Origin: an uncultured beta proteobacterium
Lineage (GTDB): Bacteria > Pseudomonadota > Gammaproteobacteria > Burkholderiales > JAEUMW01
Assembly: GCA_963747225.1 (NCBI GenBank)
Contig: CAVVES010000020.1
Coordinates: 34,967 to 98,966 of the forward strand
Reading direction: 5' to 3'
Length of the DNA: 64,000 nucleotides
Position 1 is the stretch's first letter, and each line of letters begins with the position of its first letter. Under the pieces are notes generated by a model that saw only the letters and a list, made by a program, of their open reading frames with translations, had not been told where the DNA came from and did no database searches. Shown piece by piece: positions 9,815 to 43,864 of the stretch. Both the position numbers and the translations under genes were made by a program.

Positions 9815-9864
9815 AGAACGCTGCGCGCGGACCCTCAAGCACTCGCATCAAGCGATCGTCCCCG

Positions 9865-10981
9865 TCATAGCAGTCCTTTCGCGAGTTGCCCGAGCAGGAA
9901 TCTGGATCGCGAGCACGCCGATGAAAGGGATTACGACCGGCAGCGCAATCGCGAGCAGGGACGCCTTGCCAAGGGGAACGGGCCGCATCCGCATAGAGGG
10001 CGACGGTATCCGCGACCGGCCCGATCTCGGGCGCGGACAAGAGCGGCTCATTGCGCGTTGTCTCGCCCAGGATCCACTTGCTTCGCACCGCGGCGCCGTG
10101 CTGCGCGACCAGTGCGCCGTACTCGAGGAGTGCCTGGTTCTTCGCGCGCGCAAGCTTGCCGGCGAACATCAGGCACGGCGACAGAAAGACGAGGAGCAGG
10201 ATCACCAGCGCGGCGATCATCATCGGGTAGAGCGTGTGCACGTCGAGGCGGTGAAACTCGGCGTCGTGCGCCCAGCCGCCAGCGAGCACCATTGCGACCA
10301 CGAACACAAGGAGGCTGAACGCGCCGGGATAGCGTTCCAGGAAGCCGAGGCCACCCGCGCGATCGGTATGGGTCGGAACGATGGCGAGGTCGAGCTTCGC
10401 AATACGCCTGAGTGCGGTGGCGAACAGAATCAGGCGCCACAGCCAGCCGAGCAGCAACGCGACGAAGATCGGCCGACCGACGTAGACGTACCACCAGCCG
10501 CCGAAGCCGAGCGCAGGCGCGGCCGCGGCTTCGCCTTCAGTCGCTCATGAGAGTTCGTGTGCGCGGCTCACCACGGCCCCGGGAACGCCCAGGCCATGAT
10601 CACCCACGGCAGCGCCGCATCACGCAAACGCGCGGTGCCCGCGAGGGATTGCGCGAAAGCGTGGCACATCCTCGGGCCAGACGATGCCCGCATGCACAAA
10701 TTGCGGTATGAGCCGGAGCGTCACGCTCTCAGAGGCCACCTCCGCGATGATCAGCAAAGGGATGCTGAAGAGAAGACGCGCGTGCACACCAAAGTGCTGC
10801 AGCAGCGGCTCCACGCTTTGCCCCGGTTCGGGCACCGCCAGGCCTACGGTCCAGGCCCACACGGCGACGGGAAGCCAAGGCGAGCGCCGTCCAAGAAGAG
10901 CGCACGCCGTCCGACGCCCATGCCGCCGCGCGGGACGAGTCCGATGCGCCTTTGCAGGCGGAACGGAAAATCGTTCCGCAC
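9865..10981 (-). pseudogene. conserved-hypothetical polytopic membrane protein, disrupted (several frameshifts and an in-frame TGA)
   Basis: A recognisable reading (..RNDFPFRLQRRIGLVPRGGMGVGRRALFL.., ..EPLLQHFGVHARLLFSIPLLIIAE.., ..GFGGWWYVYVGRPIFVALLLGWLWRLILF.., ..PLGKASLLAIALPVVIPFIGVLAIQIP.., LLGQLAKGLL*) hops between all three minus frames. All three frames have stops at 10540-10570. The start is uncertain. Confidence 0.5.
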
Positions 10982-21698: not shown

Positions 21699-22413
21699 TT
21701 TTCCGCTGTCGATGCTGCAGTTCTACGCAACGGCGCCCTATCCGTGCAGCTACCTCACGGAGAAGATGGCCCGTTCGCAGGTGGCCACGCCGAGCCATCT
21801 CATCGATACCACCGTCTACAGCGAACTTGTTCGTGCAGGTTTCCGTCGCAGCGGCGCGTTCACCTACCGGCCGTACTGCGACCACTGCCGCGCCTGCGTG
21901 CCGGTGCGCATCCTGACCGAAGCCTATCAGCCGAGCCGCGCCCAGCGCCGAGCGTGGAAACGCCACGAGGGACTCACCGCCCAACTCCTTGACCTCCGTT
22001 ACAGCCCGGAGCACTACGGCCTGTATCTTCGCTATCAGTCGCGTCGCCACAGCGGCGGCGGCATGGACCAGGACAGCCGCGAGCAGTATCGGCATTTCCT
22101 GCTCCAGAGCAACGTGGATTCGAACCTCGTGGAGTTCCGGGAGAACAGCATCCTGCGCATCGTCAGCATCGTGGACCGGCTGCAGGACGGTCTTTCCTCG
22201 GTCTACACTTTCTTCGATCCGACCATCGAAGGAGCCAGCTACGGCACCTACAACGTGATGTGGCAGGTGGAGCTGTGCCGCAAGCTCGGCTTGCCCTATC
22301 TCTATCTCGGCTACTGGATCGGCCAGAGCCGCAAGATGGCCTACAAGATCAATTTCCGCCCCATGGAGGGGCTGATCGACGACCGCTGGCAGACCCTGCC
22401 GCCGGCGCCCTGA
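21682..22413 (+). CDS. bpt: arginyl/leucyl-tRNA--protein transferase (Bpt/Ate)
   Basis: 243 aa. [12 protein letters not shown]...[13 protein letters not shown]...YLYLGYWI. A start at 21712 is also possible. Confidence 0.88.
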
Positions 22414-22464
22414 CGCGATACGCCGGTGGCCGCGGCCGCCGGCCCGGCGTGACGGAATTGGCCA

Positions 22465-23520
22465 ATGCTCTATTCGGCGGTACGCCGCGTCCTGTTTTGC
22501 CTCGAACCGGAAACTGCTCACCGCGTCACCCTTGCGGCACTCTCCGGGTTGGTTACCATCGGCTTGCGGCGCCTCGCGGGAGCGCCACCGCCGAGTGTGC
22601 CCCGTCGGGTTATGGGCATCGAATTCCCGAATCCGCTCGGGCTCGCCGCCGGCTTCGACAAGAACGCCGAGTACATCGACCTGATGGGCGCGCTGGGCTT
22701 CGGCTTTCTCGAAGTCGGTACCGTGACTCCCCGCCCTCAACCGGGCAATCCGCCACCCCGCATCTTCCGCATCCCCGAGAAGCACGCCCTCATCAATCGT
22801 CTCGGCTTCAACAATCAGGGTGTCGACGCCTTGCTGCGCAACGTCGAGCGATCCCGCTTCAAGGGCGTGCTCGGAATCAACATCAGCAAGAATTTCGATA
22901 CCCCGATCGAGAGTGCGCACGAGGACTACCTCACCTGCCTGCGGCGGGTCTATGTGCATGCGAGCTATGTCGCGGTGAACATCTCGTCGCCCAATACACC
23001 CGGACTGCGCGACCTGCAAAATGCTGAAGAGCTCGACAAGCTCCTCGGACTACTCAAGAATGAACAACAAGATCTGGCTGCAACCCACGGAAAATACGTG
23101 CCGATCGCGGTGAAGATAGCGCCGGACCTGGAGCCTGAGCAAGTCGAACAGATCGCCACGCTTCTCGTCAGGCACCGAATGGACGGTGTCATCGCAACCA
23201 ACACCACACTTTCGCGCGAGGGGCTGGAACATCTGCCCGTATCGCGGGAAGCGGGTGGCTTGAGCGGCGCTCCCTTGCGGGAGAGGTCGACGGCGGTACT
23301 GCGTCGCTTATCGAAAGTACTTGAAGGAAACGTGCCAATGATCGGCGTAGGCGGGATTTTTTCTGCGCATGATGCGCAGACAAAGCTGGATGCAGGTGCA
23401 AGTCTCGTGCAGGTCTACACCGGCTTCATCTACCGCGGTCCGGCGCTCATACGCGAGGTCGTCGAGGCGGTCGCCCGACAGGGCGAGCTTCCTCCGGTGA
23501 AAGGAAGGCAGTGGTCGTGA
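22465..23520 (+). CDS. pyrD: dihydroorotate dehydrogenase (quinone)
   Basis: 351 aa. GLAAGFDKN...[10 protein letters not shown]...[11 protein letters not shown]...GVGGI. Confidence 0.94.
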
Positions 23521-23552
23521 CACCGACGCACTTCAAAACCCTCCCGCCCTTG

Positions 23553-24239
23553 ATGAAAATTGAAAAGATCGACGGGTTGCTGCCCCAGACCCAGTGCCAG
23601 CGCTGCGGCTTCGGGGGTTGCCGCCCCTACGCCGAAGCCATCGAGGCGGGAGATGCCGACATCAATCAGTGCCCGCCCGGAGGCGTGGAAGGGGTAAGAC
23701 GGCTGGCCCGACTTCTCGGCGTCGAGCCGAAGCCGCTGGACCCATCGCGCGGGGCGCCTCCACCGTCTGCCGTAGCAGTGATCGACGAAAGTGCGTGCAT
23801 CGGATGCGCCCAGTGCCTCGGGCCGTGTCCGGTGGACGCCATCATCGGCGCGCCGCACCAGGTACACACCGTGATAGCTGCCTTGTGCACTGGCTGCGAA
23901 CTCTGCATCGCGCCTTGTCCGGTCGACTGCATCGCCATGAAGGTGGTCCCGGCGCCGGCCGACGAGTCGAAGTGGCAACGGAGAAGGCGCGAGAAGAAGG
24001 CTGCGGATGCTTCGCGCAAACGCCATGCGTTTCACCTTTTCCGGCACGAGCGCGAGGAGCGGGAGCGTGCCGCCATGCACGCGCGGGGAGCGGCTTCAGC
24101 AGGCGGCGGCAGGATCGCGGATCCGCGGCAGGCTGCGGTGCAGGCGGCGCTCGAGCGCGCGAAGGCGAAGCAGCACGCTGCCAGCGGCGACCGGCGTGCT
24201 CCAGACCCGAATGCGCCGGTTCCCGCGGAATCCGAATGA
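23553..24239 (+). CDS. RnfB/RsxB-like ferredoxin (stand-alone)
   Basis: Track ORF 23511..24239; preferred start is [23 protein letters not shown]. Two 4Fe-4S boxes are present: [12 protein letters not shown] and [12 protein letters not shown]. The stop overlaps the nth start (ATGA). Confidence 0.8.
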
Positions 24240-24880
24240 ACGCCGCCAAGCGTCACGCGATCTTCGCGCGCCTGCGGGCGGGGAACCCCGCTCCCGCATC
24301 AGAGCTAGCCTATCAGACTCCGTTCGAACTCCTGATCGCTGTGATCCTTTCGGCGCAGGCGACCGACAAGAGCGTGAATGTCGCGACGGCGGAGCTCTTC
24401 CCCGCCGCCCATACCCCCGAGTCGATGCTGGCCCTGGGCCAAGCCGGACTCGAGTACTACGTGAAGCGCATCGGGCTCTACCGCATGAAGGCGAAACACA
24501 TCATCGAAACCTGCCGGTTGCTCATCGAACGCCACGGCGGGCAGGTGCCCGAGAATCGGGAAGCGCTCGAAACGCTTCCCGGCGTCGGCCGCAAGACCGC
24601 CAACGTGATTCTGAACACGGCGTTCGGTCAGCCCACCATCGCCGTGGACACGCATATTTTCCGCGTGGCAAACCGTACTGGCCTTGCAAAGGGGAAGACC
24701 GTCCTCGAAGTCGAGAAAAAACTCGAGAAGTCCACCCCTCCCGAATTCCGGCACAACGCCCATCACTGGCTCATCCTCCACGGACGCTACGTCTGCGTCG
24801 CCCGTAAACCGAAGTGCCCGAGCTGTCTGATCGAGGATTTGTGCGAGTATCCGAACAAGACCCAAGGAGTGAAAACGTGA
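24236..24880 (+). CDS. nth: endonuclease III
   Basis: This is the 214-aa tail of track ORF 23594..24880. Hh[17 protein letters not shown] and the FeS cluster loop [17 protein letters not shown]. Confidence 0.94.
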
Positions 24881-25007
24881 AGGGGTGAAACTGTGGAAGG
24901 ATGCAACGGTGGGAAGGTGGCTTAAGAAAAAAGCCGTACATCGCTGCTGACTTGACTTCTTCACGCCTTCAGTCATTCACTCGTTCACCCATTCACGCCT
25001 TTTCGCC
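24869..25007. repeat. dyad-symmetric pair of 8-bp-period pentamer arrays (GTGAA-N3 x~7 / N3-TTCAC x~7)
   Basis: Left array: GTGAAAAC GTGAAGGG GTGAAACT GTGGAAGG ATGCAACG GTGGGAAG GTGGCTTA (24869-24924). Right array pentamers at 24952, 60, 68, 76, 84, 92 and 25000: TTGAC TTCAC TTCAG TTCAC TTCAC TTCAC TTTTC. Pentamer pairs are mirror-registered about 24932.5. The spacers are not complementary. Confidence 0.7.
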
Positions 25008-25573: not shown

Positions 25574-26119
25574 ATGGCCGAAACATCCCACTTGAAGTTG
25601 CGCCCGATTCCGGCGCTCATATTCGCCAGCCGCTGGCTGCAGCTACCGCTGTACCTCGGACTGATCGTCGCGCAGTGCGTCTACGTCTGGCAGTTCTGGA
25701 AAGAACTGGTCCATCTGCTGCATATCGCGGCCGAGCGCAACGTCATCAACGAGACCCAGATCATGCTCGTAGTGCTGGGGCTGATCGACGTGGTGATGAT
25801 CGCGAACCTGCTCATCATGGTGATCGTCGGCGGCTACGAGACCTTCGTCTCACGGCTTTACCTGGAGGGGCATCCGGACCAGCCGGAGTGGCTATCGCAC
25901 GTTAACGCGGCGGTGCTCAAGGTGAAGCTCGCCACGGCCATCATCGGCATCTCTTCGATCCATCTGCTCAAGACGTTCATCAACGCGGAGCAGCTATCGC
26001 AGCACGTAATCATGTGGCAGGTCACCATTCACATCACGTTCCTGCTGTCCGCGATCGTGGTCGCCTGGACGGACCGAATCCTGGCGCCTACCCTGAAGGT
26101 CAAGCACGCGGCGCATTAG
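25574..26119 (+). CDS. yqhA: UPF0114 (YqhA) family membrane protein
   Basis: 181 aa. [17 protein letters not shown]...[28 protein letters not shown]. Confidence 0.82.
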
Positions 26120-26153
26120 GTGGTAGGCCGAGGGGATCGACGTACCGCTCCTG

Positions 26154-29100
26154 TCAACGGCCGTTTTCCAGCGTCTCGATCAGGAAGAGGATTTCGGCGG
26201 CCATCGTGTAGTCCAAATCCGGGGCGTCGGCGAGGGTGCGGTCGCGGCTGCCGGCGACGATGGCTTGGAGGGCTTGGATGAAGGGGTGGACGCCACGCGG
26301 CGTCGGGATCGGCGGCGAGTTGCTGGAGGAGGGACGCAGCGGCGGCCGGGTCGCCGGCGAGCAGGGCTTGGGTCACGGCGAGGCAGATGCGGCCATCGGC
26401 GGTGTGGTTCTCGCCGCCGTCGCGGCGGTAGGCGAGGTAGCAGGCGATGGCCTTGCGCTTCGCCTCCGCGGCGGCGGCGGGGTTGCCGGCGTCCGTCTCG
26501 ATGTCGGCGAGGATGGCCCAGGTCTTCCACGGCTCAGACGCGTGGCCGAACTGCGCTTTGCATTCGATCGCCCGGCGGATTTCCTGCCGCGCTTCGTCGA
26601 GGCGGCGGAGCTTGCGCAGGGTGTTGGCGAGATTGTTCCTCGCGCGCCCTTCGTTCGCCACATCGCCGATCTCGACATACTTGTCCGCGGCTTGCCGGTA
26701 GAAGGCCACGGCTTCCTCCGGGCGGTCGAGGACATCGTCATACAAGTTCCCCAGTTGCACTGAGCGTGCTCGCCTGCCCGGCGACATTTCCGAGCCGCAC
26801 CTTGATCGCGAGCGATTTCCGGTAGGCATCCTCCGCCGCTTCCGGCTGTCCCGCCTCCTGATACACCATGCCGGTCTGATGCCAGATCACGGCGACGGTG
26901 CCCGGTTCGTCCAACTGCGTGAACCGCTCGCGCGCTTCGGCATACGCCGCCAGCGCCTCCGGGTAGCGGCGCTGCTCCATGCGGACGGTCCCAAGCTGGC
27001 CTTTGCCGACGGCGACCTCCCGGTCGTCACCGAGTTGCTCGGCGCGGCGGATGCTCTCTTCGTAGGCCGCCGCCGCTTCGTCGAGCCGACCCAGGTCGCG
27101 AAGACAGTCGCCTCGTTCCGCGAAGCAGACGGACGCCATCCCTTCCGCAGCTTTGCTGGCTCGCTCCTTCGCGACGGCCTCGAAGCGCTGGCGGGCCTCG
27201 TCCAGCAGCGGCAAGGCCTGTTCCGAGCCGCCGGCCGTCTTCAACACGCGGGCCAGCAGGCAGCAAGCCATCGCCAGATCGTAATCGGCGTCGGGATACG
27301 CCTGCTCGCCCGCCGCCCGGGCGCGCTGGAGCAACTGCTGCGCGCCGTCCAACGCCTCGCGCAACCGCCCGCCGGCAAGCTGCTGCTCGATGCGGGTCCG
27401 CGCCGCCTCGAACCGCGCGTGATTCCAGGCGTCGCCCAGCGCCGCCGCCGCGGCGTCGCGCACCTGCCCCACGCGCTCCAGCAGCCGCGGCTTGCCGAGC
27501 GAATTGCAGCAGGCTGTAGAGCGAAGTGGCCAGATCGATCGTCGCCTCCGCATCCCCCGCGCGCTGCACGAGGTCGAGCAGCGCAAAGAGGTTCGGCAGC
27601 TCCAGCACCGTCAGCGTCGCCGCGAGTTCGGCGTTCTGGCTCTGCTGCTGCTCGAGGAACCCGACATACCCGCGCATCGCCTCGACCCAGCGGGCCGTCA
27701 GCGCCTCGCGCTCCGCCGCGTCCATCCGCCCGCGCAGGTAGGGGCAGAGCGCGGGATTGAGCGTGAGATGGTTGTAGCGGTTCGGCGTCGCCAGCCCCGT
27801 CTCGATCAACTCGCCCGCCAGCGAGGCCACGTCCGCCTCTTCCCACTCCATCATCACGCGGAGCACGTCCAGATCGACCCCGCCGTGAAACACCCCGAGC
27901 ACGCGCGCCCTGTCCCGGTTCGCGGGCGACATGCGGCGCAGCGAAAGCTCGACGCTGGCGAAGACCGATTGCTCCCGGCTGCCGGGGAACTTCCGCTCCA
28001 TCTCCGCCATCAGCTCGACGAGCGATTCGCGGGTCGCCTCGACGCCGCGGCTGCGCAGCGCCGGGGCCAGCAGCGCCAGCGTGCGGGCGTGGCCGTGGAC
28101 GGCATCCACGAGCTGCTCGATCTCCTCGCGCGCGGCATCGGCGGCGGCGCCGGCGTCCGCCGCCGTCGGCGTTCAGCACGCGCTCGACCAGCTTCACCGC
28201 GTCCTCGCGGTCGAGCCGGTGCAGCTCGCGCCGGTGCCGCTCGGCATCGAACGGCGCGGGCAGCGCCTCGCGGCTGGTGAAGACGAGCCGCGTGTCGCCC
28301 TTCGCATGCAGCCGCGCGCAGAGCTGCGAGGATGGCGTCCAGCTCGCGGCGCGCCTCCTCGGAGAGCGCCTCCGGCGTCTCGCACGATAGGGCGGCAGGA
28401 GGATGCTCTCCATGTTGTCCACCACCAGCAGCGTGGACTGCTCGGCAGCGCGCGCTCGACGGGCAGGATGGCCTTTTCCAGATCGTCGAACGTGGCGACG
28501 GAGTAATCCGTCGCACGAGCTGGCGGCCGATGGCATCGAGCACCGCGGCGGCGTTGCTGTGCGTCTCGACGGAGACGAACGCGGCGCGGCGCATCTGCTG
28601 CGAGCGGACCATCCAGCGCGCAAACTCGGCGGCGAGCGCGGTCTTGCCTTCGCCGCCCTGGCCGCGCACCACGGCGTAGCGCTCGTGGCGCAGCAGCCGC
28701 TGCAGCGCGAGCAGCTCGCGGCTGCGGCCGATGAAGCCGGTCTCCGGCTCCGGCGGCAGTTCGCCGAGGCGCGCCGCGAGCGCGGTCTTGCAAGTCCTCC
28801 TGCGTCTGCTGCGCGGGCGTGGTGCGGAAGAGCTGCGGGTCGTCCTTTTCCTGGAAGAGCACGGGCACGAACCAATCCTCCAGCCGCAGCTCGCCCGCGC
28901 CGAAGATGCGGCCGCGGAAGGTGTCGTCCTTGAGCTGGCGCTGGCCTGCGAGCATGGCATCGCCCACGCGCTGCGCCGCGGGCCAGCGCGTCGTAGAACG
29001 CCTCGACGAAGCGGCGCGCGGTCTCGACCAGCACGCTGTGGCTCATGGCCACGACCGAGGCCACGCCGACCTTCAGCAGCTCGGAGGCGACGGACTCGGA

Positions 29101-30543
29101 CGCCTTCTCGGCCTGCGCGGTCTGGCAGGCTTCGAGGAAGACGAGCGGGATGCGGTGATCGCGCAGCAGCGGGCCGAGTTCGCTGGTGAAGACGGTGACG
29201 TGCCGGCGCTGGTCGAGCTTGCCGATGTCCTGCGGGTCCTCGAAGCACAGCCCGCCGAGGCCGACGCGTGCGGTCATAGACGCCGTGGCCGTCGAAGTGG
29301 ACGACGTGATAGGGCTCGCGCTCGCGCGCGGGCGCGGTCGAGCTCCTCGCGCAGGGCCGGCAGCGTGGGCGGGCTGAGGACGTGGATGCTGCACCAGGCC
29401 GCCGAGCGTCTTCCATCGCCTCGACCAGCGGCAGCGCGCTCGCGCGGTGGTCGATGTAGCCGCACGCGTCGTCCTCCGGCCGCGCGGTGACGAGCAGGAT
29501 GCGGATGGGCGTGGCGACCACCGGCACGTCGAGCACTCGCGTGTTCGGCAGGCGGCGGCGGACGCGCGTGGGCTTCGCGCCCTGGAACAGGTAGCCGTCG
29601 CCGTCGTGGAGCAGTTCCCACGGCAGGCCGAGCAGGAGCGTGGCGGCTTCGCGGGCGGTCGTCGACCTCGGCCTCGGCGGCGCCGGCTTCGAGCGACGCA
29701 TCGACGTGGACGGAGAAACGGCGCCCGGCGTGGTCGTCGATCCGCGCCCAGGCGTTCATGACGTTCGCCGTGTGGGCGACGGGCATCGCGGCCTCGTGCA
29801 GGAGCCGCCCCCACTTCACGAGGTTCTCCTCGACCTTGCGCGCGCGGTCCCGGAAGTAGTCGCTCGGCCAGATGGCGTACTTCTCCAGGTACCAGCGCAG
29901 CTCCTCGGCCTCGATCGGACCGATGGGAGCGATGAAGCGCCAGCTCTGCGCGCTGGCGACTTCGCGCTGCCCCGGCGTGGCCGGCTCGTAGACGAGCCGG
30001 GCGCGAGCCGAGGCGCGGCGCACGCCGTCCTGCTCGTGGAACTTGAAGTCGGTGAGTTCGAGCACGAGCTCTTCCAGCGGCTCGGCCTTGGGCTGCGGCG
30101 TGGGAGCAACATCGGCGGGGAGCGCGTTTGCCCAGGGCGACGAGGATCGCATTCATCGCCGCTTCGACGCCGCCCGCGTCGCTGCTCACCGGGATGTAGA
30201 TCGGCTCCTCGCCGAAGAACTCTTCGAGCACGCCGAGCTTCGTGCCGTTCGAGCGAGAGCGGGATGACCGGGAACTTGTCCTTGCCGCGCTGCTTCTGCA
30301 CCTCGAGCGCGTGGCGCAGTTCCTTGCCGACCCACTTCGACTGCAACGACATCCGGGCTGACGACGACGGCGTAGGCCGACGCTTCCTCGATGGCTTTCT
30401 GGATCTCCGGCCAGAGCGGATCGCCGCCGCGCAGCTCGCGCGAATCGATCCAGCCGTCCTGCCCGTGATCGGCGAGCGCCGCGCGGAGATCGCGCACGAA
30501 CGCGTCGTCCTGTCGAGCTGTGGGAGATGAAGAGTCTGGTCAT
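26154..30543 (-). pseudogene. TIR - CHAT protease - STAND/P-loop NTPase - TPR protein (~1,460 codons), reading frame broken ~18 times
   Basis: Stitched from track ORFs 27241..30543, 30186..30497, 29816..30580, 29274..30152, 28010..29701, 28194..28967, 27027..28109, 26738..27586 and 26116..26829, plus an unlisted tail ending ..ILFLIETLENGR* at 26154. Motifs: FISHSS / SKWVGKEL (TIR), LGLPWELL, HFDGHG, FLEACQT (CHAT), GQGGEGKT and LLVVDNME (P-loop), and multiple TPR units. Confidence 0.75.
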
Positions 30544-30570
30544 CGCGGCCCTGCCGGTACCACTCTAACC

Positions 30571-30590
30571 GTGAAAGCAAGGACTTTCAC
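30571..30590. promoter_or_regulatory. inverted repeat upstream of the TIR-CHAT-STAND gene; possible operator
   Basis: GTGAAAG-CAAGGA-CTTTCAC is a perfect 7-bp inverted repeat, 28 nt upstream of the ATG at 30543. Confidence 0.3.
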
Positions 30591-30694
30591 CCACGCGTTG
30601 CGCGTGCGATCAACTCGCAGGGACGGTGCCGCCAACAAAAACCGTGAACGCCTCGCTGATGACTGTTTGGTGCGGACCGCAGTAGCGCCGGAGG

Positions 30695-31027
30695 CTACTC
30701 CATCCGCGGCGCCTTCTTCACGAAGAGCCCGCTCTGGCTCGAAAAGAATGCCGCCAGATCTGCCATATCCTGGTCGGTCAGACTCGCAGCCTGCGGCGCC
30801 ATGATCGCGTTCTTGCGCGCCCCGCTCTTGTAGTCTTTCAGGGCTTTCACGATGTAGTCCGGCTGCTGGCCGGCAAGGCGGGGGAAATCCGGCACAGCGC
30901 TGTTGCCGTCGGCGCCATGACACGCCGCGCAGGGGGTGGACTTCTGCTTGCCGGCTTCGACGCTGCCGGCAAATGCGGGCAGCGCGAAAAAGGCAAGAGC
31001 TGCCACCGCGGCGATGGATTTCAGCAT
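30695..31027 (-). CDS. class I monohaem cytochrome c (c4/c553-like half)
   Basis: This is the 110-aa tail of track ORF 30695..31291 (MLKSIAAVAALAFFALPAFA..). Haem motif CAACHG and DQDMADLAAFF. Confidence 0.85.
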   Translation of the reverse strand: MLKSIAAVAALAFFALPAFAGSVEAGKQKSTPCAACHGADGNSAVPDFPRLAGQQPDYIVKALKDYKSGARKNAIMAPQAASLTDQDMADLAAFFSSQSGLFVKKAPRME

Positions 31028-31047
31028 GCTCACACTCTTCTTGGAGT

Positions 31048-31404
31048 TCACTTCGCGGCGGCGCTCGTCGGGGCGCCTGCGGGTGTGGAGTAGAAGGCGG
31101 CCAGATCCGCCATGTCCTGGTCCGACAGACTCGCCGCGATCGCCGCCATTGTGGGATGCCAGCGCTCGCCACTCTTGTAGGCCTGCAGCGCCTTCACGAT
31201 ATAGGCGGCGTGCTGACCGCCGATCTTGGGCACCGAGTACACCGCGGGAAACGCCGTGCGGTAGTCCGGTATGCCGTGGCATCCCTGGCACATCGAATCC
31301 TTGAGCTTGCCCGCCGCCGCGTTGCCGTCGGCTGCTGCGCCCGGCGTCGGAGTACAGAGGACAGAGGTGAGGAGCACAGCGGTCACTGCGAAGCGCACGA
31401 TCAT
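31048..31404 (-). CDS. class I monohaem cytochrome c (c4/c553-like half)
   Basis: 118 aa with a signal peptide. Haem motif CQGCHG and DQDMADLAAFY. It is a paralogue of the gene at 30695..31027. Confidence 0.85.
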   Translation of the reverse strand: MIVRFAVTAVLLTSVLCTPTPGAAADGNAAAGKLKDSMCQGCHGIPDYRTAFPAVYSVPKIGGQHAAYIVKALQAYKSGERWHPTMAAIAASLSDQDMADLAAFYSTPAGAPTSAAAK

Positions 31405-31506
31405 TCTCTCTGCAAGTTTGCGTCGGTTTCCAGCGGCCGGACTTTATCGGAAGCGGCGGTCATGGTCAACGGAGCGGCCGCGCCCACACCGGCCGAAACC
31501 CCTATA

Positions 31507-32148
31507 ATGCGCGTTTTTTGTGCGAATCCCGTGCTTTGCGCCGAAAATCTCGCCTGCTCGCGGGGCGACAGACTCGTCTTCTCGGGCGTCGGATTCGATG
31601 TTGAGCCGGGGCAGGCGCTCGTGGTCACAGGAGCCAACGGTAGCGGCAAGACGAGCCTGCTGCGGATCGTGTGCGGCCTGCTCGAACCCGCCGCGGGAGA
31701 GATCCGCTGGGACGGCACGAAGACGCGAAGACTCGGCGAAGAATACTTCGCGCGGCTCGGTTACGTCGGCCATCTGAACGGCCTCAAGGACGATCTGACC
31801 CCGGCGGAGAACCTTCGAACCGCGACTGGCATGTCGGGCGCGCCTGCGGACGAAGGCGCGGCAAGAACGGCGCTGCGGCGCCTCGGCATCGAAGGTCAGG
31901 CCGACCTGCCGGTGCGGTGGCTGTCGCAGGGTCAGAAGCGCCGTGCAGCGCTAGCCCGTCTGCTGGTCGCGCAGCGCTCACTATGGGTGCTCGACGAGCC
32001 CTTCACAGCCCTCGACCGGGAGTCGACCGCGACGGTGGAAGCGCTGCTGCAGGAGCATCTCGAAGGCGGCGGCCTGGCTCTGCTCGCAACCCATCAGGAC
32101 TTGCACGGCGTGCGCGCGCCCGTCCTCCGCCTCGGCCTCGGGGCTTGA
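31507..32148 (+). CDS. ccmA: haem exporter ATP-binding protein CcmA
   Basis: This is the 213-aa tail of track ORF 30973..32148. Walker A GANGSGKTS, signature LSQGQKRR, Walker B LWVLDEP. Confidence 0.9.
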   Translation: MRVFCANPVLCAENLACSRGDRLVFSGVGFDVEPGQALVVTGANGSGKTSLLRIVCGLLEPAAGEIRWDGTKTRRLGEEYFARLGYVGHLNGLKDDLTPAENLRTATGMSGAPADEGAARTALRRLGIEGQADLPVRWLSQGQKRRAALARLLVAQRSLWVLDEPFTALDRESTATVEALLQEHLEGGGLALLATHQDLHGVRAPVLRLGLGA

Positions 32149-32157
32149 GAAGCGGCG

Positions 32158-32826
32158 ATGGGCTCAGCGCTCGCATGGATCATTCGTCGCGATCTCGTTC
32201 TCGCGCTGCGCCAGCGTACCGATGTGACGACCACTCTCATTTTCTTCGTCATCGTGGTGAGCCTTTTTCCTCTCGGCGTCGGGCCGGAGATGGAGAAGCT
32301 GCGGCCGCTCGCACCAGGGGTGCTGTGGGTCGCCGCCCTGCTCGCCTCGATGCTCTCCCTCGGGCGACTCTTCGCGAGCGACTACGCAGACGGCACGCTG
32401 GAACAGATGCTGATCGCGCCGCAGCCGCTCTCCCTTGTGGTGCTCGGCAAGATCATCGCTCACTGGCTCGCGTCCGGCTTGCCGCTCGTGCTCATCGCAC
32501 CCGTGCTCGCGATCCAGTACGACCTCACCGGCGAGCCGCTGCTGGTGCTGCTCGCGGCGCTGCTCATCGGCACACCTGTATTGTCGGCGATCGGTGCGAT
32601 CGGCGCCGCGCTCACGCTCGGCCTGCGCGGTGGGGGCGTGCTGATTGCCCTACTGGTGCTGCCGCTCTACGTGCCGGTCGTGATCTTCGGCGCCGGTGCG
32701 GTCGATGCCAGCGTGTCCGGCCTCGACCCGGTTGGACACCTTTCGCTGCTTGCGGCGTTCCTTCTCCTGTCTCTGGTGGTCGGGCCGGTCGCTTCCGCCA
32801 CTGCCCTTAGAATCTCCGTAGAATGA
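32158..32826 (+). CDS. ccmB: haem exporter membrane protein CcmB
   Basis: 222-aa polytopic ORF in the ccm order. DYADGTLEQMLIAP. Confidence 0.9.
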   Translation: MGSALAWIIRRDLVLALRQRTDVTTTLIFFVIVVSLFPLGVGPEMEKLRPLAPGVLWVAALLASMLSLGRLFASDYADGTLEQMLIAPQPLSLVVLGKIIAHWLASGLPLVLIAPVLAIQYDLTGEPLLVLLAALLIGTPVLSAIGAIGAALTLGLRGGGVLIALLVLPLYVPVVIFGAGAVDASVSGLDPVGHLSLLAAFLLLSLVVGPVASATALRISVE

Positions 32827-32851
32827 AGCGGCCAGGATCGTCGCAATTCTT

Positions 32852-33604
32852 ATGTCGAGCACCACAATCAGCTGGTTCAAGTACGCCTCCCCAGCGAGCT
32901 TCTACGGCCTCGCTGGAAAGCTCGTTCCGTGGTTCGCGCTCGGCGCTGCCATGCTCTTCGCGGCCGGCCTGTACACGGGTTTCTTGGTCGCCCCCACGGA
33001 CTTTCAGCAGGGCGAGTCGTACCGGATCATCTTCATTCACGTGCCGGCCGCCTGGATGTCCATGTTCCTGTATCTGCTGATGGCAGCCTACGCGGCCCTC
33101 GGATTCATCCTCAACGCACGGCTTTCCGCGATGATGGCGCAGGCGATCGCGCCCACCGGCGCTCTCTTCACCTTCATAGCACTTTGGACCGGCGCGCTCT
33201 GGGGACGACCCACCTGGGGCACTTACTGGGTGTGGGACGCGCGGCTCACGTCGGAGCTGATCCTGCTCTTCCTCTATCTCGGCTTCATGGCGCTGCAGGC
33301 CGCGATCGAGGACCCGCGTCGGGCCGATCGCGCGGGCGCCGTGCTGGCGATCGTCGGCGCCATCAACGTCCCGATCATCTATTTCTCCGTGCAGTGGTGG
33401 AACACGCTGCACCAGGGCGCGTCGGTGAGCCTCACGCAGTCGCCGACGATGGCGACGGTCATGCTCCGGGGAATGCTGCTGATGGCGTTTGCCTGTTGGT
33501 TCTATGCGACCGCCGTGATCCTCACACGGGTGCGCGTCATCATTCTCGAAAGGGAGCAGGCGAGGCCCTGGCTGGCCGAACGGGCGGACCGGGAGCACGC
33601 ATGA
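32852..33604 (+). CDS. ccmC: haem exporter protein CcmC
   Basis: 250 aa with the WWD-type motif [12 protein letters not shown]. Confidence 0.92.
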
Positions 33605-41808: not shown

Positions 41809-42355
41809 ATGCAAGACCGAAGGCAGCAGATCATCGAAGCCGGCCTCGCCACGCTACGCGAATACGGCTTCACCGGACTCACCCAGCCGCGAGTGGCAGC
41901 GCGCGCGGGCCTCCGTCAAAGCCATCTGACCTACTACTTTCCGACCCGCGTCGATCTCTTGACCGCCGCAGCTCGCTCGGCCATCGACCGTCAACTTGCG
42001 GCGGTGGACCTCGTGCTGAAGGGAAACGCATCCCAGGCTGCCGACGCGATCGCAAAAGTCGCCGTCCGTCACGAGAACACGCGGGTGATGATGGCTCTCG
42101 CCCAGGCAGCCGACGAGGAGCCCGCGTTGCGAGAGCTGTTCCGTGAGTTGGCCGACGGAATCGTGGCACGCTCGAACACCTTCCTGAAGACTCTGAACGG
42201 CGCGTCAACCGAGGAACACGCCCGTCTCCTTCACGCGCTCTCGGTCGGGCTTGCAGTCGTCGATCTCGCGAACGTCGCGGCCCGACAGCGCCAAGTGCTC
42301 CGCGGCCGTCCTTGCCACCGCTCTCAAGCTCATCGCATCCTCGAAGAAGCGCTGA
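41809..42355 (+). pseudogene. TetR/AcrR family regulator with an apparent frameshift near the C-terminus
   Basis: N-terminal HTH GFTGLTQPRVAARAGLRQSHLTYYF. After ..GLAVVDLA (~42275) a plausible C-terminus (SRPDSAKCSAAVLATALKLIASSKKR*) continues in another frame. In the track frame the ORF instead runs on into the next gene. Confidence 0.6.
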
Positions 42356-42396: not shown

Positions 42397-43864
42397 ATGA
42401 CAAACCCGGTACTCATCGTCGGCGCGGGCCCTGTCGGCCTTACCGTGGCCAGCGAGCTGGCGCGCTTCGGAGTAGCCGTCCGCATCGTCGACAAGGCAGC
42501 GCAGCGCACTGACAAATCCAAGGCTCTGGTGCTGTGGAGCCGAACCCTTGAACTGCTCGATCGCGGTGAAGGTTCCGCGCCATTCATCGACGCGGGTTCA
42601 AGGCACATGGGGTGAACTTCGTCGCCGGCGGCGGAAAGCTGATCGGGCACGTCGACATGGACGGCGTGCAAAGTCCCTACCCCTACGCGCTGATGCTTCC
42701 GCAGTCCGATACCGAGAGATTGCTCGAGGAACGGCTGAACAAGCTGGGTGTCGTGGTCGAGCGCCAAGTCGAGGTCGTCCGCTTCACGCATGGCGAAGCC
42801 GGCGTCAAAGCGCTGCTTCGTCACCACGACGGAGGCGAGGAGAACGTCTCGGCCGACTGGCTCCTGGGGTGCGATGGCGCGCACAGCATCGTTCGCAACA
42901 GCCTTGGTGTGAACTCGCCGGCGAGACCCTGGATAGTGACTGGATGCTGGCGGATGTCCACATGCGCGGCTATCCGTTCCCGGACAGCGAAACGTCCGTC
43001 TATTGGCACGAGGACGGTGTCTTCGTAATCTTCCCGATCTCGCCTGGTCGCTATCGCGTGGTCGCCAACCTGCCGTCGATTGAGGGCGAGCATCCCCCGG
43101 CGCCCACGCTGGAGCAGGCACAGGCGATCATCGATCGCAGAGGTCCTCCGGGTCTCACCGCTTTCGACCCGATCTGGCTTGCGGGCTTCCGCATCAACGA
43201 CCGCAAGGTCGCGAACTATCGCCACGGCCGCGTCTTTCTCCTCGGCGACGCCGCGCACATTCACAGCCCCGCAGGCGGACAGGGCATGAACACCGGCATG
43301 CAGGACGCCTTCAATCTTGCGTGGAAGCTGGCGCTGGTCATTCGCGGGGCGTGTGGGGATCGCCTGCTCGAGAGCTACAGCGCCGAACGCAGCAAGGTCG
43401 GCGACGAAGTGCTCAAACAGGCTGGCAGGCTGACGGCAATGGGCACGCTGAGGAGCCCTGTGGGGCAGAGCATCCGCAATTTCCTGGGTCACTTGCTGTT
43501 CGGCCTTGCACCCGTTCAGCACGCGTTCGCGGATTCGATGACGGAGGTCGCAATCGGCTATCCGGAGAGCCCGTTGAACGGCCCCGGCGTGCACGGAACG
43601 GGACCGAAACCGGGCGAGCGCGTCGTCCCCGTCAGCGGTCAGTCTCCGATCGGATCGGGCAGCACGCCGCGCTTCGCGCTATTCGCGGAGCGCAATGCAG
43701 CGATCGCCGATCTGCGCAAGCGGTTCGACAGGCTCCTCGAACACGACATCAGGCCGCCACTGCGTGAGGGATTTATCTGGCTCGTCAGACCCGATGGTTA
43801 CGCAGTGTGTTCTGCGAGCGATCCAGCAACGATCGCCGACTATCTGCACGGGCTCGCCAGTTGA
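42397..43864 (+). pseudogene. FAD-dependent aromatic-ring monooxygenase (PheA/TfdB-like), two frameshifts
   Basis: MTNPVLIVGAGPVGLTVASELARFGVAVRIVDK (GxGxxG), with frame changes at ~42605 and ~42905. Then ..GRVFLLGDAAHIHSPAGGQGMNTGMQDAFNLAWKLA. Stitched from ORFs 41809..42615, 42612..43028 and 42548..43864. Confidence 0.8.

Follow-up and report, generated by a model that had tools for sequence, protein, structure and literature searches.

A Many-Times Frameshifted TIR–CHAT–NTPase–TPR Gene in a Burkholderiales Metagenome Assembly Is Probably a Mixed-Allele Consensus

Introduction

One gene of a Burkholderiales MAG changes its reading frame again and again over some 4.4 kb, raising the question of whether it has decayed in the cell, is expressed despite its frame changes, or was damaged only on the way from reads to contig. 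The window analysed here is the whole 64,000-nt stretch around this gene, taken from a 133.8-kb contig. In the genome collection, the nearest relative was an MFD MAG. An earlier note on this DNA had left two options: a gene that is intact in vivo but carries errors of the consensus where coverage is low or strains vary, or an unusual localised mutational process.

Results

The gene and its locus

The gene forms a single insert between housekeeping genes. Its CDS starts with ATG at 30543, ends with TGA at 26156-26154 and, as deposited, is split into 20 frame segments. The features of the locus are:

25574..26119, plus strand, UPF0114 membrane-protein gene in the flank, with an identical sequence in the assembly L087 and also conserved in L004, a related MAG
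26154..30543, minus strand, TIR–CHAT–NTPase–TPR gene, approximately 1457 aa, defined by the frame trace and the stitched protein
30698..31404, minus strand, two small flanking genes, for a cytochrome c and a 118-aa ORF

When the segments were stitched, the resulting 1457-aa protein had more than 2300 intact homologues, all single uninterrupted ORFs of approximately 1460 aa. Along its full length (100%) it was collinear with homologues of 1457–1470 aa, at 78–86% identity, the best match reaching 86%. Pfam placed TIR_2 at 5-99, CHAT at 301-536, AAA_16 at 600-753 and TPR at about 1190-1330 on the homologue P0001. By these matches, the gene belongs, as an unremarkable member, to a very widespread TIR, CHAT, P-loop NTPase, TPR family.

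The order TIR_2, CHAT, AAA_16/AAA_22, TPR_12 is that of conflict proteins combining TIR, a CHAT protease, a STAND-type NTPase and TPR; Kaur, Burroughs, Iyer and Aravind reportedly discussed comparable conflict/defence architectures in 2020. In some genomes the homologues adjoin restriction-modification, Mrr and AbiJ genes. The TIR domain matched ThsB-type and other TIR defence models of PADLOC. No PADLOC model of any defence family was matched over its full length, the matches being those of the TIR domain (residues 3-98) and the TPR domain. With Thoeris ThsB, as with TIR defence proteins in general, kinship lies at the domain level only; any defence role of the gene in the window is putative.

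Frame changes within the gene

A GC3 frame plot and a codon-usage Viterbi trace both showed that, from 30543 to 26154 on the minus strand, the coding frame passes through each of the three phases. The events were placed by DNA alignment to the intact homologues L001 and L003 (approximately 89% identical) and then by alignment to six sequences; A and B-type in the list are the alleles described below, and L086 is another assembly of the locus. There were 19 frame events in the gene, 15 of them +1; 16 share one phase effect. They are listed here from the start of the gene, with approximate positions:

30513, minus strand, +1, TCG-A-CAG-GAC, allele A (TCG ACC GAC) combined with B-type (TCG CAG GAC)
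30351, minus strand, +1, multi-base codon block variable among alleles; L086 also shifted, with another local sequence
30251, minus strand, +1, CT[C]GAACGGC, in which the C from allele A precedes B-type GAACGGC; event common to L086
30126, minus strand, +1, C/G SNP with both bases present (CGCGCT); L086 shifted there with a different sequence
29661, minus strand, +1, variable codon block; L086 shifted there with a different sequence
29392..29410, minus strand, +1 twice, at 29410 and at 29392, with a segment of 8 codons between
29325, minus strand, +1 in the window only, CGCGC[G]CGAG; alleles show C, A or G in this column
29267, minus strand, +1 in the window only, CCGCAC[G]CGTC; not in L086, L087, L001 or L003
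28982, minus strand, +1 in the window only, the sole insertion lengthening a short same-base run
28791, minus strand, +1 in the window only, GACTT[G]CAAG
28514, minus strand, -1 in the window only, highly polymorphic codon
28446, minus strand, -1 in the window only, coinciding exactly with a T/G SNP that separates A from B-type
28388, minus strand, +2, where an in-frame 6-bp indel separates real alleles and the window is of intermediate length
28326, minus strand, +1 in the window only
28159, minus strand, +1 in the window only, GGCGG[C]GGA, the C breaking a G run
27498, minus strand, +1 in the window only, TTCGC[T]CGGC, that is, TTCGC (allele A) combined with CT-CGGC (B-type)
26761, minus strand, +1, codon CTG, TTG or GGG among alleles; L086 shifted there with a different sequence
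26302, minus strand, -2, C-terminal stretch in which the alleles themselves differ by indels

The hopping of the frame and its bias towards one direction, both described in the earlier note, were borne out, and the computational re-trace did not turn them into a balanced set. The counts given there, 18 transitions with 14 one-way, had to be corrected to 19 and 16 because the 8-codon segment at 29412-29389 had been merged into one transition. No internal stop was found in the stitched 1457-aa protein, as had been noticed before for the separate segments. The extra bases had also been described as single and lying outside long homopolymers; indeed, for 15 of the 16 insertions the added base was unlike both its neighbours, and therefore these are not homopolymer slips. 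A 1100-aa 'clean' ORF at 27241-30543 was considered as a sign of intactness and rejected as a high-GC artefact, since it translates for the most part into Arg/Ala junk, in which islands of sense are embedded, and since the true frame moves according to GC3.

Frameshifts elsewhere in the window

The genes for ccoN, ccoI, ccmF and the patatin each read in one frame, as the earlier note had stated of the neighbourhood. This cleanness does not extend to all neighbours: tetR carries a +1 at ~42272, and the adjoining FAD monooxygenase gene runs through three frames with breaks at ~42593 and ~42912. Contrary to the earlier note, damage is not strictly confined to one gene, the 42.2-42.9 kb region also being hit. 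The concentration itself stood. Event density was approximately 4 per kb in the gene vs 2 window-specific indels in ~13.5 kb of comparable flank, an error density about 27 times that of the flanks. Each of the three long assemblies, the window, L086 and L087, has private singleton indels in its flanks as well. Near 9975, a possible frameshift was considered, where Pfam gave no match on either piece.

Other assemblies of the same locus

Three other assemblies, L084, L086 and L087, yielded this locus with flanks that are essentially identical. Number and position of the indels differed among these copies: 19 in the window, approximately 25 in L086, 3 in L087 and 0 in the 1104 bp of L084.

The Logan contig L084 differed from the window by 1 mismatch between 30685 and 33157, that is, in ~2.5 kb of flank. 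It spans only the first 368 codons of the gene, and in these first 1104 bp it had 0 of the five shifts of the window and gave a sensible 368-aa N-terminus. In L087, which carries allele A, the gene is 4383 bp long, exactly the length of the intact homologue L001, with 3 indels and a 1049-codon open frame. A search for a clean full-length allele A returned only this 1049-aa fragment of L087 itself. L086 had about 25 insertions, 6-7 of them at positions shifted in the window, where the local sequence usually differs between the two. These 6-7 common positions could in principle have been inherited, though the local sequences differ.

The comparison of the window with L087 delimited the divergent part sharply. 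No differences were found in 25740-26172 and 30527-32180, and the differing stretch lies inside the CDS only:

26173..30526, stretch differing between the window and L087, approximately 12% divergence in a site-wise A/B-like mosaic

Extra bases at allelic SNPs

The columns flanking insertions were allele-polymorphic more often than expected in both frameshifted assemblies. In the window this held for 22 of 52 columns vs 12.4 expected (P=0.008), and in L086 for 52 of 88 vs 21 expected, a value reached by 0 of 4,000 shuffles. The extra base equalled the alternative allele of an adjacent SNP in 7 of 13 cases in the window (1.6 expected, P=0.0003) and in 16 of 23 in L086 (2.8 expected; 0 of 3,000 simulations reached this). 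Extra bases that repeat the other allele of a neighbouring SNP mean that both alleles were written in tandem.

The mosaic of two alleles

The window was 88.0% identical to allele A and 89.7% to L001, and A and L001 were 81.6% identical to each other. The window and L086 shared 95.8% identity, each lying approximately 12% from allele A. Over the 522 sites separating A from B, the source of the window sequence changes 154 times. Interleaving of A and B was not relied on alone, as a three-taxon tree gives interleaving too; it counts only together with the very short private branch of the window and with conflicting splits. Bases private to one sequence numbered 60 of 4367 in the window vs 367 in L087, 208 in L001 and 233 in L003. 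Among four-taxon informative sites, 7 grouped the window with L086, apart from A and B, and the two conflicting splits had 29 and 47 sites, interleaved gene-wide. These split counts replaced a comparison in which the window or L086 equalled A at 92% of their differences, which was dropped because a simple tree predicts the same.

The stitched protein is also unusually central among the family members. Its best family match was at 86%, whereas real allele A reached 77-78% at best. This independent comparison with allele A replaced a centrality test on the 110 best matches, in which the window came first in mean identity; that result was discounted because the homologue set had been chosen by similarity to the window and is biased. 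Part of the mosaic pattern could likewise arise from a real allele that is highly recombinant.

Discussion

The results point to a gene copy that very probably (we put this at roughly 0.88) is a mixed-allele consensus artefact of metagenome assembly and not the real sequence of any cell, a judgement drawn from sequence comparison. The first option of the earlier note, consensus errors where strains vary and an intact gene in the cell, is supported because independent assemblies disagree on where the indels lie, L084 reads unshifted through 368 codons, the sequence blends two alleles and the extra bases are SNP alleles. The cell itself most likely has the gene as one unbroken ORF of about 1460 codons.

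The reads behind the consensus would have carried at least two versions of the 4.4-kb accessory gene, approximately 18% apart in DNA. Allele A would be the resident version, which other assemblies sharing these flanks show cleanly, and the B-like version would lie near the common type of the family and stem either from co-occurring strains or from cross-mapping copies of other organisms. Inside the CDS, the consensus step may have picked A or B-like one base at a time. At A/B differences, both SNP alleles would often have been written successively, leaving an extra base, and more rarely neither, leaving a lost one. The flanks would have been resolved correctly because they are unique. Such mixing of alleles would yield the excess of insertions, their non-homopolymer context, the lack of stops, a normal dN/dS and damage confined to the CDS. 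Flye-style contig names of the sister assemblies, together with the sporadic indels, suggest that the window contig comes from an error-prone long-read assembly. A link to the Microflora Danica long-read project would be a guess from these contig names and from the MFD relative. The disagreement between assemblies, the mosaic and the SNP alleles written in tandem are shown by the sequences; the sequencing platform, the behaviour of the polisher and the source of the B-like reads we infer.

Could the window instead hold a real third allele, 'C', overlaid with random long-read consensus errors, for example at low coverage, and no mixing at all? The high identity of the window and L086 at a similar distance from A, the sporadic indels elsewhere on the contig and the great diversity of the family make this plausible in outline. 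It is nevertheless improbable, as 76 informative sites conflict with a grouping of the window with L086 and only 7 favour it, private bases are very few in the window, and its flanks are identical to those of the carrier of allele A. Random noise, moreover, would give neither the roughly 27-fold excess over the flanks nor alternative-allele bases at allele SNPs. We regard as still less probable a true pseudogene, inactivated in vivo by localised, insertion-biased mutation, even though the deposited frameshifts are strongly insertion-biased, some of their positions recur in L086, and accessory defence-like genes can be costly and lost. Decaying bacterial pseudogenes likewise have several frameshifts in an accessory gene, but the gene in the window differs from them in having no stops, no rise in dN/dS (0.32-0.34 vs 0.26-0.32 between intact alleles), nearly one-way indels, and indels that same-flank assemblies do not reproduce. 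Stops and a dN/dS near 1 had been named in the earlier note as marks of true decay, and balanced directions as what would remove the bias; none of the three was seen, and a decayed pseudogene is therefore unlikely. Although their flanks are identical to those of the window, L084 shows no shift over its 368 codons and L087 only 3 indels, and even at the positions shared with L086 the local sequences differ. The insertions do not resemble slippage, and a mutational process has no reason to supply the base of an alternative allele. The proposal of an unusual localised mutational process found no support.

Many shifts in the same direction and a corrected frame free of stops are also what expression through programmed ribosomal frameshifting or other recoding would present. 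There is, to our knowledge, no precedent for 19 recoding events within a single bacterial gene. The homologues, more than 2300 of them, are single ORFs of about 1460 aa, and the shift sites have no motif in common and differ from one assembly of the locus to another. No slippery motif was conserved at the shift sites, their junction sequences being unrelated to each other. Programmed frameshifting is effectively refuted by the intact homologues, L084 and L087.

The mixed-allele consensus resembles errors familiar from long-read assembly and strain collapse. Watson and Warr are said to have reported in 2019 that indels break protein prediction. Breakage of a gene into many short ORFs by single-base indels, variation between assemblies, concentration where similar sequences collapse and an open reading of the same locus in a k-mer-based assembly are all common to such errors and to the present case. 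The usual long-read error is a genome-wide error of homopolymer length, whereas the extra bases here are non-homopolymer, lie in one CDS and are traceable to SNPs between two alleles. Strain collapse in metagenome assemblies is the problem that the tool Strainberry is presented as addressing (PMC8302730), and Nanopore-only soil assemblies have been produced with Flye plus Medaka (PMC12313526).

As deposited, such a gene would be called a pseudogene or a string of fragments in the MAG annotation, and pseudogene or "gene decay" statistics from these assemblies would be inflated at precisely the most variable and most widely shared loci, for example defence genes. The signature can be recognized without reads: an excess of non-homopolymer insertions, in which the added base is the other allele of an adjacent SNP, and, as further signs, divergence confined to the CDS and a sequence "central" between real alleles. 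Nothing here suggests a new mutational mechanism or new biology.

Finally, it is conceivable, but rather doubtful, that strains of one Burkholderiales species with identical flanks carry alleles of this gene approximately 18% apart, the whole CDS having been replaced from a cross-phylum gene pool. Otherwise, the B-like signal would be only cross-mapping from unrelated organisms. If allele replacement were true, the locus would be hypervariable, often exchanged and immune-like. Homologues at 75-86% amino-acid identity occur in Planctomycetota, Acidobacteriota, Verrucomicrobiota and Gammaproteobacteria.

Frameshifts in the TIR-CHAT-NTPase-TPR gene

26154-30543 (-), TIR-CHAT-NTPase-TPR coding sequence, frameshifted as deposited

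The G+C content is 71-73% across 26-30.5 kb and about 64% in the flanks. The 1100-aa ORF that starts at ATG 30543 in the ORF listing was rejected as a real product, its translation being for the most part meaningless Arg/Ala-rich sequence broken by islands of plausible protein; it is a spurious long ORF typical of such G+C-rich sequence. The frame was traced with a GC3 frame plot and a codon-usage Viterbi path in which frame jumps were permitted, and both agreed. Between 30543 and 26154 the minus-strand coding frame makes about 19 jumps through all three phases, 16 of them acting like one extra base. The joined segments encode a protein of 1457 aa, and its matches over 100% of the length to more than 2300 database proteins of about 1457-1470 aa (best identity 86%) demonstrate that the frame trace is correct. 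The lesions were located by DNA alignment to the intact homologues of loci L001 and L003 (about 89% nt identity) and refined by a six-sequence alignment, which gave 15 +1 events, two -1 events (28514 and 28446), one +2 (28388) and one -2 (26302).

The frame changes reported in the earlier note were thus confirmed by GC3, Viterbi and the alignment to intact homologues. The strong bias towards one direction also stood, but the exact count of 18 shifts with 14 one way did not, since the 8-codon segment 29412-29389 had been merged. As had likewise been claimed, the insertions lie outside homopolymers, the extra base being unlike both neighbours in 15 of the 16 insertion events, and the joined protein has no internal stop.

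Copies of the same locus in other assemblies

The decisive evidence comes from same-locus copies in independent assemblies. The CcmB protein of the window was found, exact, on the Logan contig L084, which differs from the window at 1 position across 30685-33157 and at 128 of 1109 positions inside the gene (29435-30543). The five extra bases of the window in the latter interval are exactly those absent from L084, and the 368 codons of L084 read as a plausible TIR N-terminus. The whole locus is also present on each of two metagenome contigs from ENA, L086 and L087. Outside the gene the nearest differences between L087 and the window are at 25739 and 32181; all those in between fall within 26173-30526, i.e., inside the coding sequence. 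L087 is 99.4% identical to L084, so both were named allele A. The gene of L087 (4383 bp, the length of the intact L001 homologue) carries only three indels and has an open frame of 1049 codons. The L086 gene (4407 bp) carries about 25 insertions and one deletion; 6-7 of its indels coincide with shifted window positions, the local sequence there being usually different. Indel tallies and sites differ among L084, L086, L087 and the window, hence the frameshifts follow the assembly and not the organism. A clean full-length allele A was looked for among the database homologues and was not found.

Logan contigs from four runs (L084; ERR15459708, ERR12036786 and ERR12983021) share the ccm/cytochrome c flank, and each runs into the TIR-CHAT gene for a different distance, ending within its first 66-368 codons. 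Such staggered ends fit assembly-graph branching from several similar alleles in those communities.

Despite the identity on either side of the TIR-CHAT gene, window 22166-24900 is roughly 10-25% divergent from L087:1-2800, with many gaps. In the gene calls, a 494-aa minus-strand ORF of L087 stands in place of the Fer4/FeS and endonuclease III genes that the window shares with L086. The stretch may be a second segment that varies or was wrongly assembled; alternatively, the gene content truly differs.

The window sequence as a blend of two alleles

Over the whole gene the window is 88.0% identical to allele A (L087) and 89.7% to L001, A and L001 being 81.6% identical to each other, and the window falls between the two in every 200-bp step. 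Bases absent from all other aligned sequences numbered 60 of about 4367 in the window, 367 in L087, 208 in L001 and 233 in L003. At the 522 sites separating A from B (the L001/L003 type), the window agrees with A at 151 and with B at 371, with 154 switches of source. This interleaving alone was set aside as proof of mixing because a three-taxon tree allows it too. The four-taxon split of window and L086 versus A and B was found at 7 sites, and the two conflicting splits at 29 and 47 sites, which are spread and intermixed along the whole gene. Hardly anything thus points to a genuine third allele common to the window and L086. Judged from these site patterns, both are independent site-by-site draws between A and a B-like sequence. 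The best non-self match is 77-78% for allele A and 86% for the joined protein of the window, as expected if the window sequence had been drawn towards the family consensus; this comparison avoids the selection bias of an earlier homologue-centrality test.

The positions of the insertions were compared with the columns at which the clean alleles L087, L001 and L003 vary.

Insertions and polymorphic columns
Polymorphic columns flanking insertions, window: 22/52, expected 12.4, P=0.008
Polymorphic columns flanking insertions, L086: 52/88, expected 21, reached in 0/4,000 shuffles
Inserted base equal to the alternative allele of a directly adjacent SNP, window: 7/13, expected 1.6, P=0.0003
Inserted base equal to the alternative allele of a directly adjacent SNP, L086: 16/23, expected 2.8, reached in 0/3,000 simulations

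Junctions in the window
30513: TCG-A-CAG-GAC, ACC codon of A and CAG codon of B
30251: CT-C-GAACGGC, C from A, then GAACGGC from B
30126: CGC-G-CT, C/G SNP with both alleles present
27498: TTCGC-T-CGGC, TTCGC of A joined to CT-CGGC of B
28446: missing base is a T/G SNP
28388: in-frame 6-bp indel between real alleles, window length intermediate

On the simplest reading, the consensus would have been computed over a pile-up containing both alleles. Mismatched bases, as we infer of the software, may have been laid out as adjacent insertion and deletion columns and both retained, which would add a base at a SNP and naturally give the non-homopolymer context.

Origin of the frameshifts

The earlier note had offered two readings, a consensus error where strains vary (the gene then being intact in vivo) and a localised mutational process, and had stated that stops together with dN/dS near 1 would speak for a decayed pseudogene. 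Neither sign of decay was found: after removal of the window-specific indel columns, dN/dS was 0.32-0.34 for the window versus L001, L003 or L087 (0.26-0.32 between intact alleles), and the corrected gene has only its terminal stop codon. A localised mutational process is not supported; it would also not be expected to insert exactly the neighbouring-site base of another allele. The discordance of assemblies, the mosaic and the SNP-adjacent insertions support with high confidence the consensus error and, with it, a gene that is most likely intact in vivo. The pattern of frame changes is not biological in origin. The B-like reads would come either from a co-occurring strain that shares the flanks or, by cross-mapping, from other taxa. 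What remains of biological interest is the possibility of real allelic replacement of the TIR-CHAT gene between strains with identical flanks.

The closest relative in genome collections is a long-read MAG from Microflora Danica, a project whose assemblies were made with Flye from Nanopore data alone and given one Medaka round (PMC12313526); for the sequencing provenance of the window this gives no more than a lead.

Other frameshifts in the window

The window, L086 and L087 each have singleton indels of their own in the flanks.

41809-42352 (+), tetR, frame switch at about 42272, extra A in the window versus both L086 and L087
42397-43864 (+), FAD-dependent monooxygenase adjoining tetR, split over three frames
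About 9848-10544 (-), coding segment that may hold a further frameshift

In the monooxygenase one G of a G4 run is missing at about 42593, and a second shift lies near 42912; positions 3-56, 82-169 and 180-348 of the PF01494 profile are each in a different frame. In the third region the coding signal ends at about 9981, the ORF continuing to 9672 and overlapping a plus-strand gene, and a short segment in another frame (9899-9970) has its stop at 9848. Pfam gave no matches to either piece.

Gene family and insertion site

The window gene is a new member of the known, very widespread TIR-CHAT-NTPase-TPR family. The homologue P0001 carries Pfam-type domains TIR_2 (5-99), CHAT (301-536), AAA_16/AAA_22 P-loop NTPase (600-753) and TPR (about 1190-1330); PADLOC matched TIR and TPR at domain level only. 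Homologues at 72-86% aa identity are on contigs labelled Planctomycetota, Acidobacteria, Chthoniobacteraceae, Competibacter, Contendobacter, Accumulibacter and Nitrospira, often short ones (P0001-P0189; L001, L003). Such identity across very different phyla indicates that the family is very widely exchanged and suggests frequent horizontal transfer of the gene as a single-gene module. Restriction-modification, Mrr and AbiJ genes surround the L001 copy. Upstream of the gene, L001 and L002 both have a pair of small conserved ORFs (197 aa and 260-273 aa), and downstream a 66-aa ORF; the L003 gene follows that of a separate TIR protein of 124 aa. The window has none of these partners.

The related MAG locus L004 (about 75% nt identity) is syntenic with the window on both flanks of the gene. 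L004:10532-12231, the equivalent of window 26117-30695, spans 1.7 kb versus 4.6 kb and has a 305-aa (-) and a 147-aa (+) ORF in place of the TIR-CHAT gene; from reading the sequence our guess is that these may be MscS-like and OsmC-like. The other ORFs at the syntenic site mark the TIR-CHAT gene as an inserted accessory gene, and the intergenic site, which has conserved UPF0114 and cytochrome c/ccm genes on its two sides, seems to vary in content.
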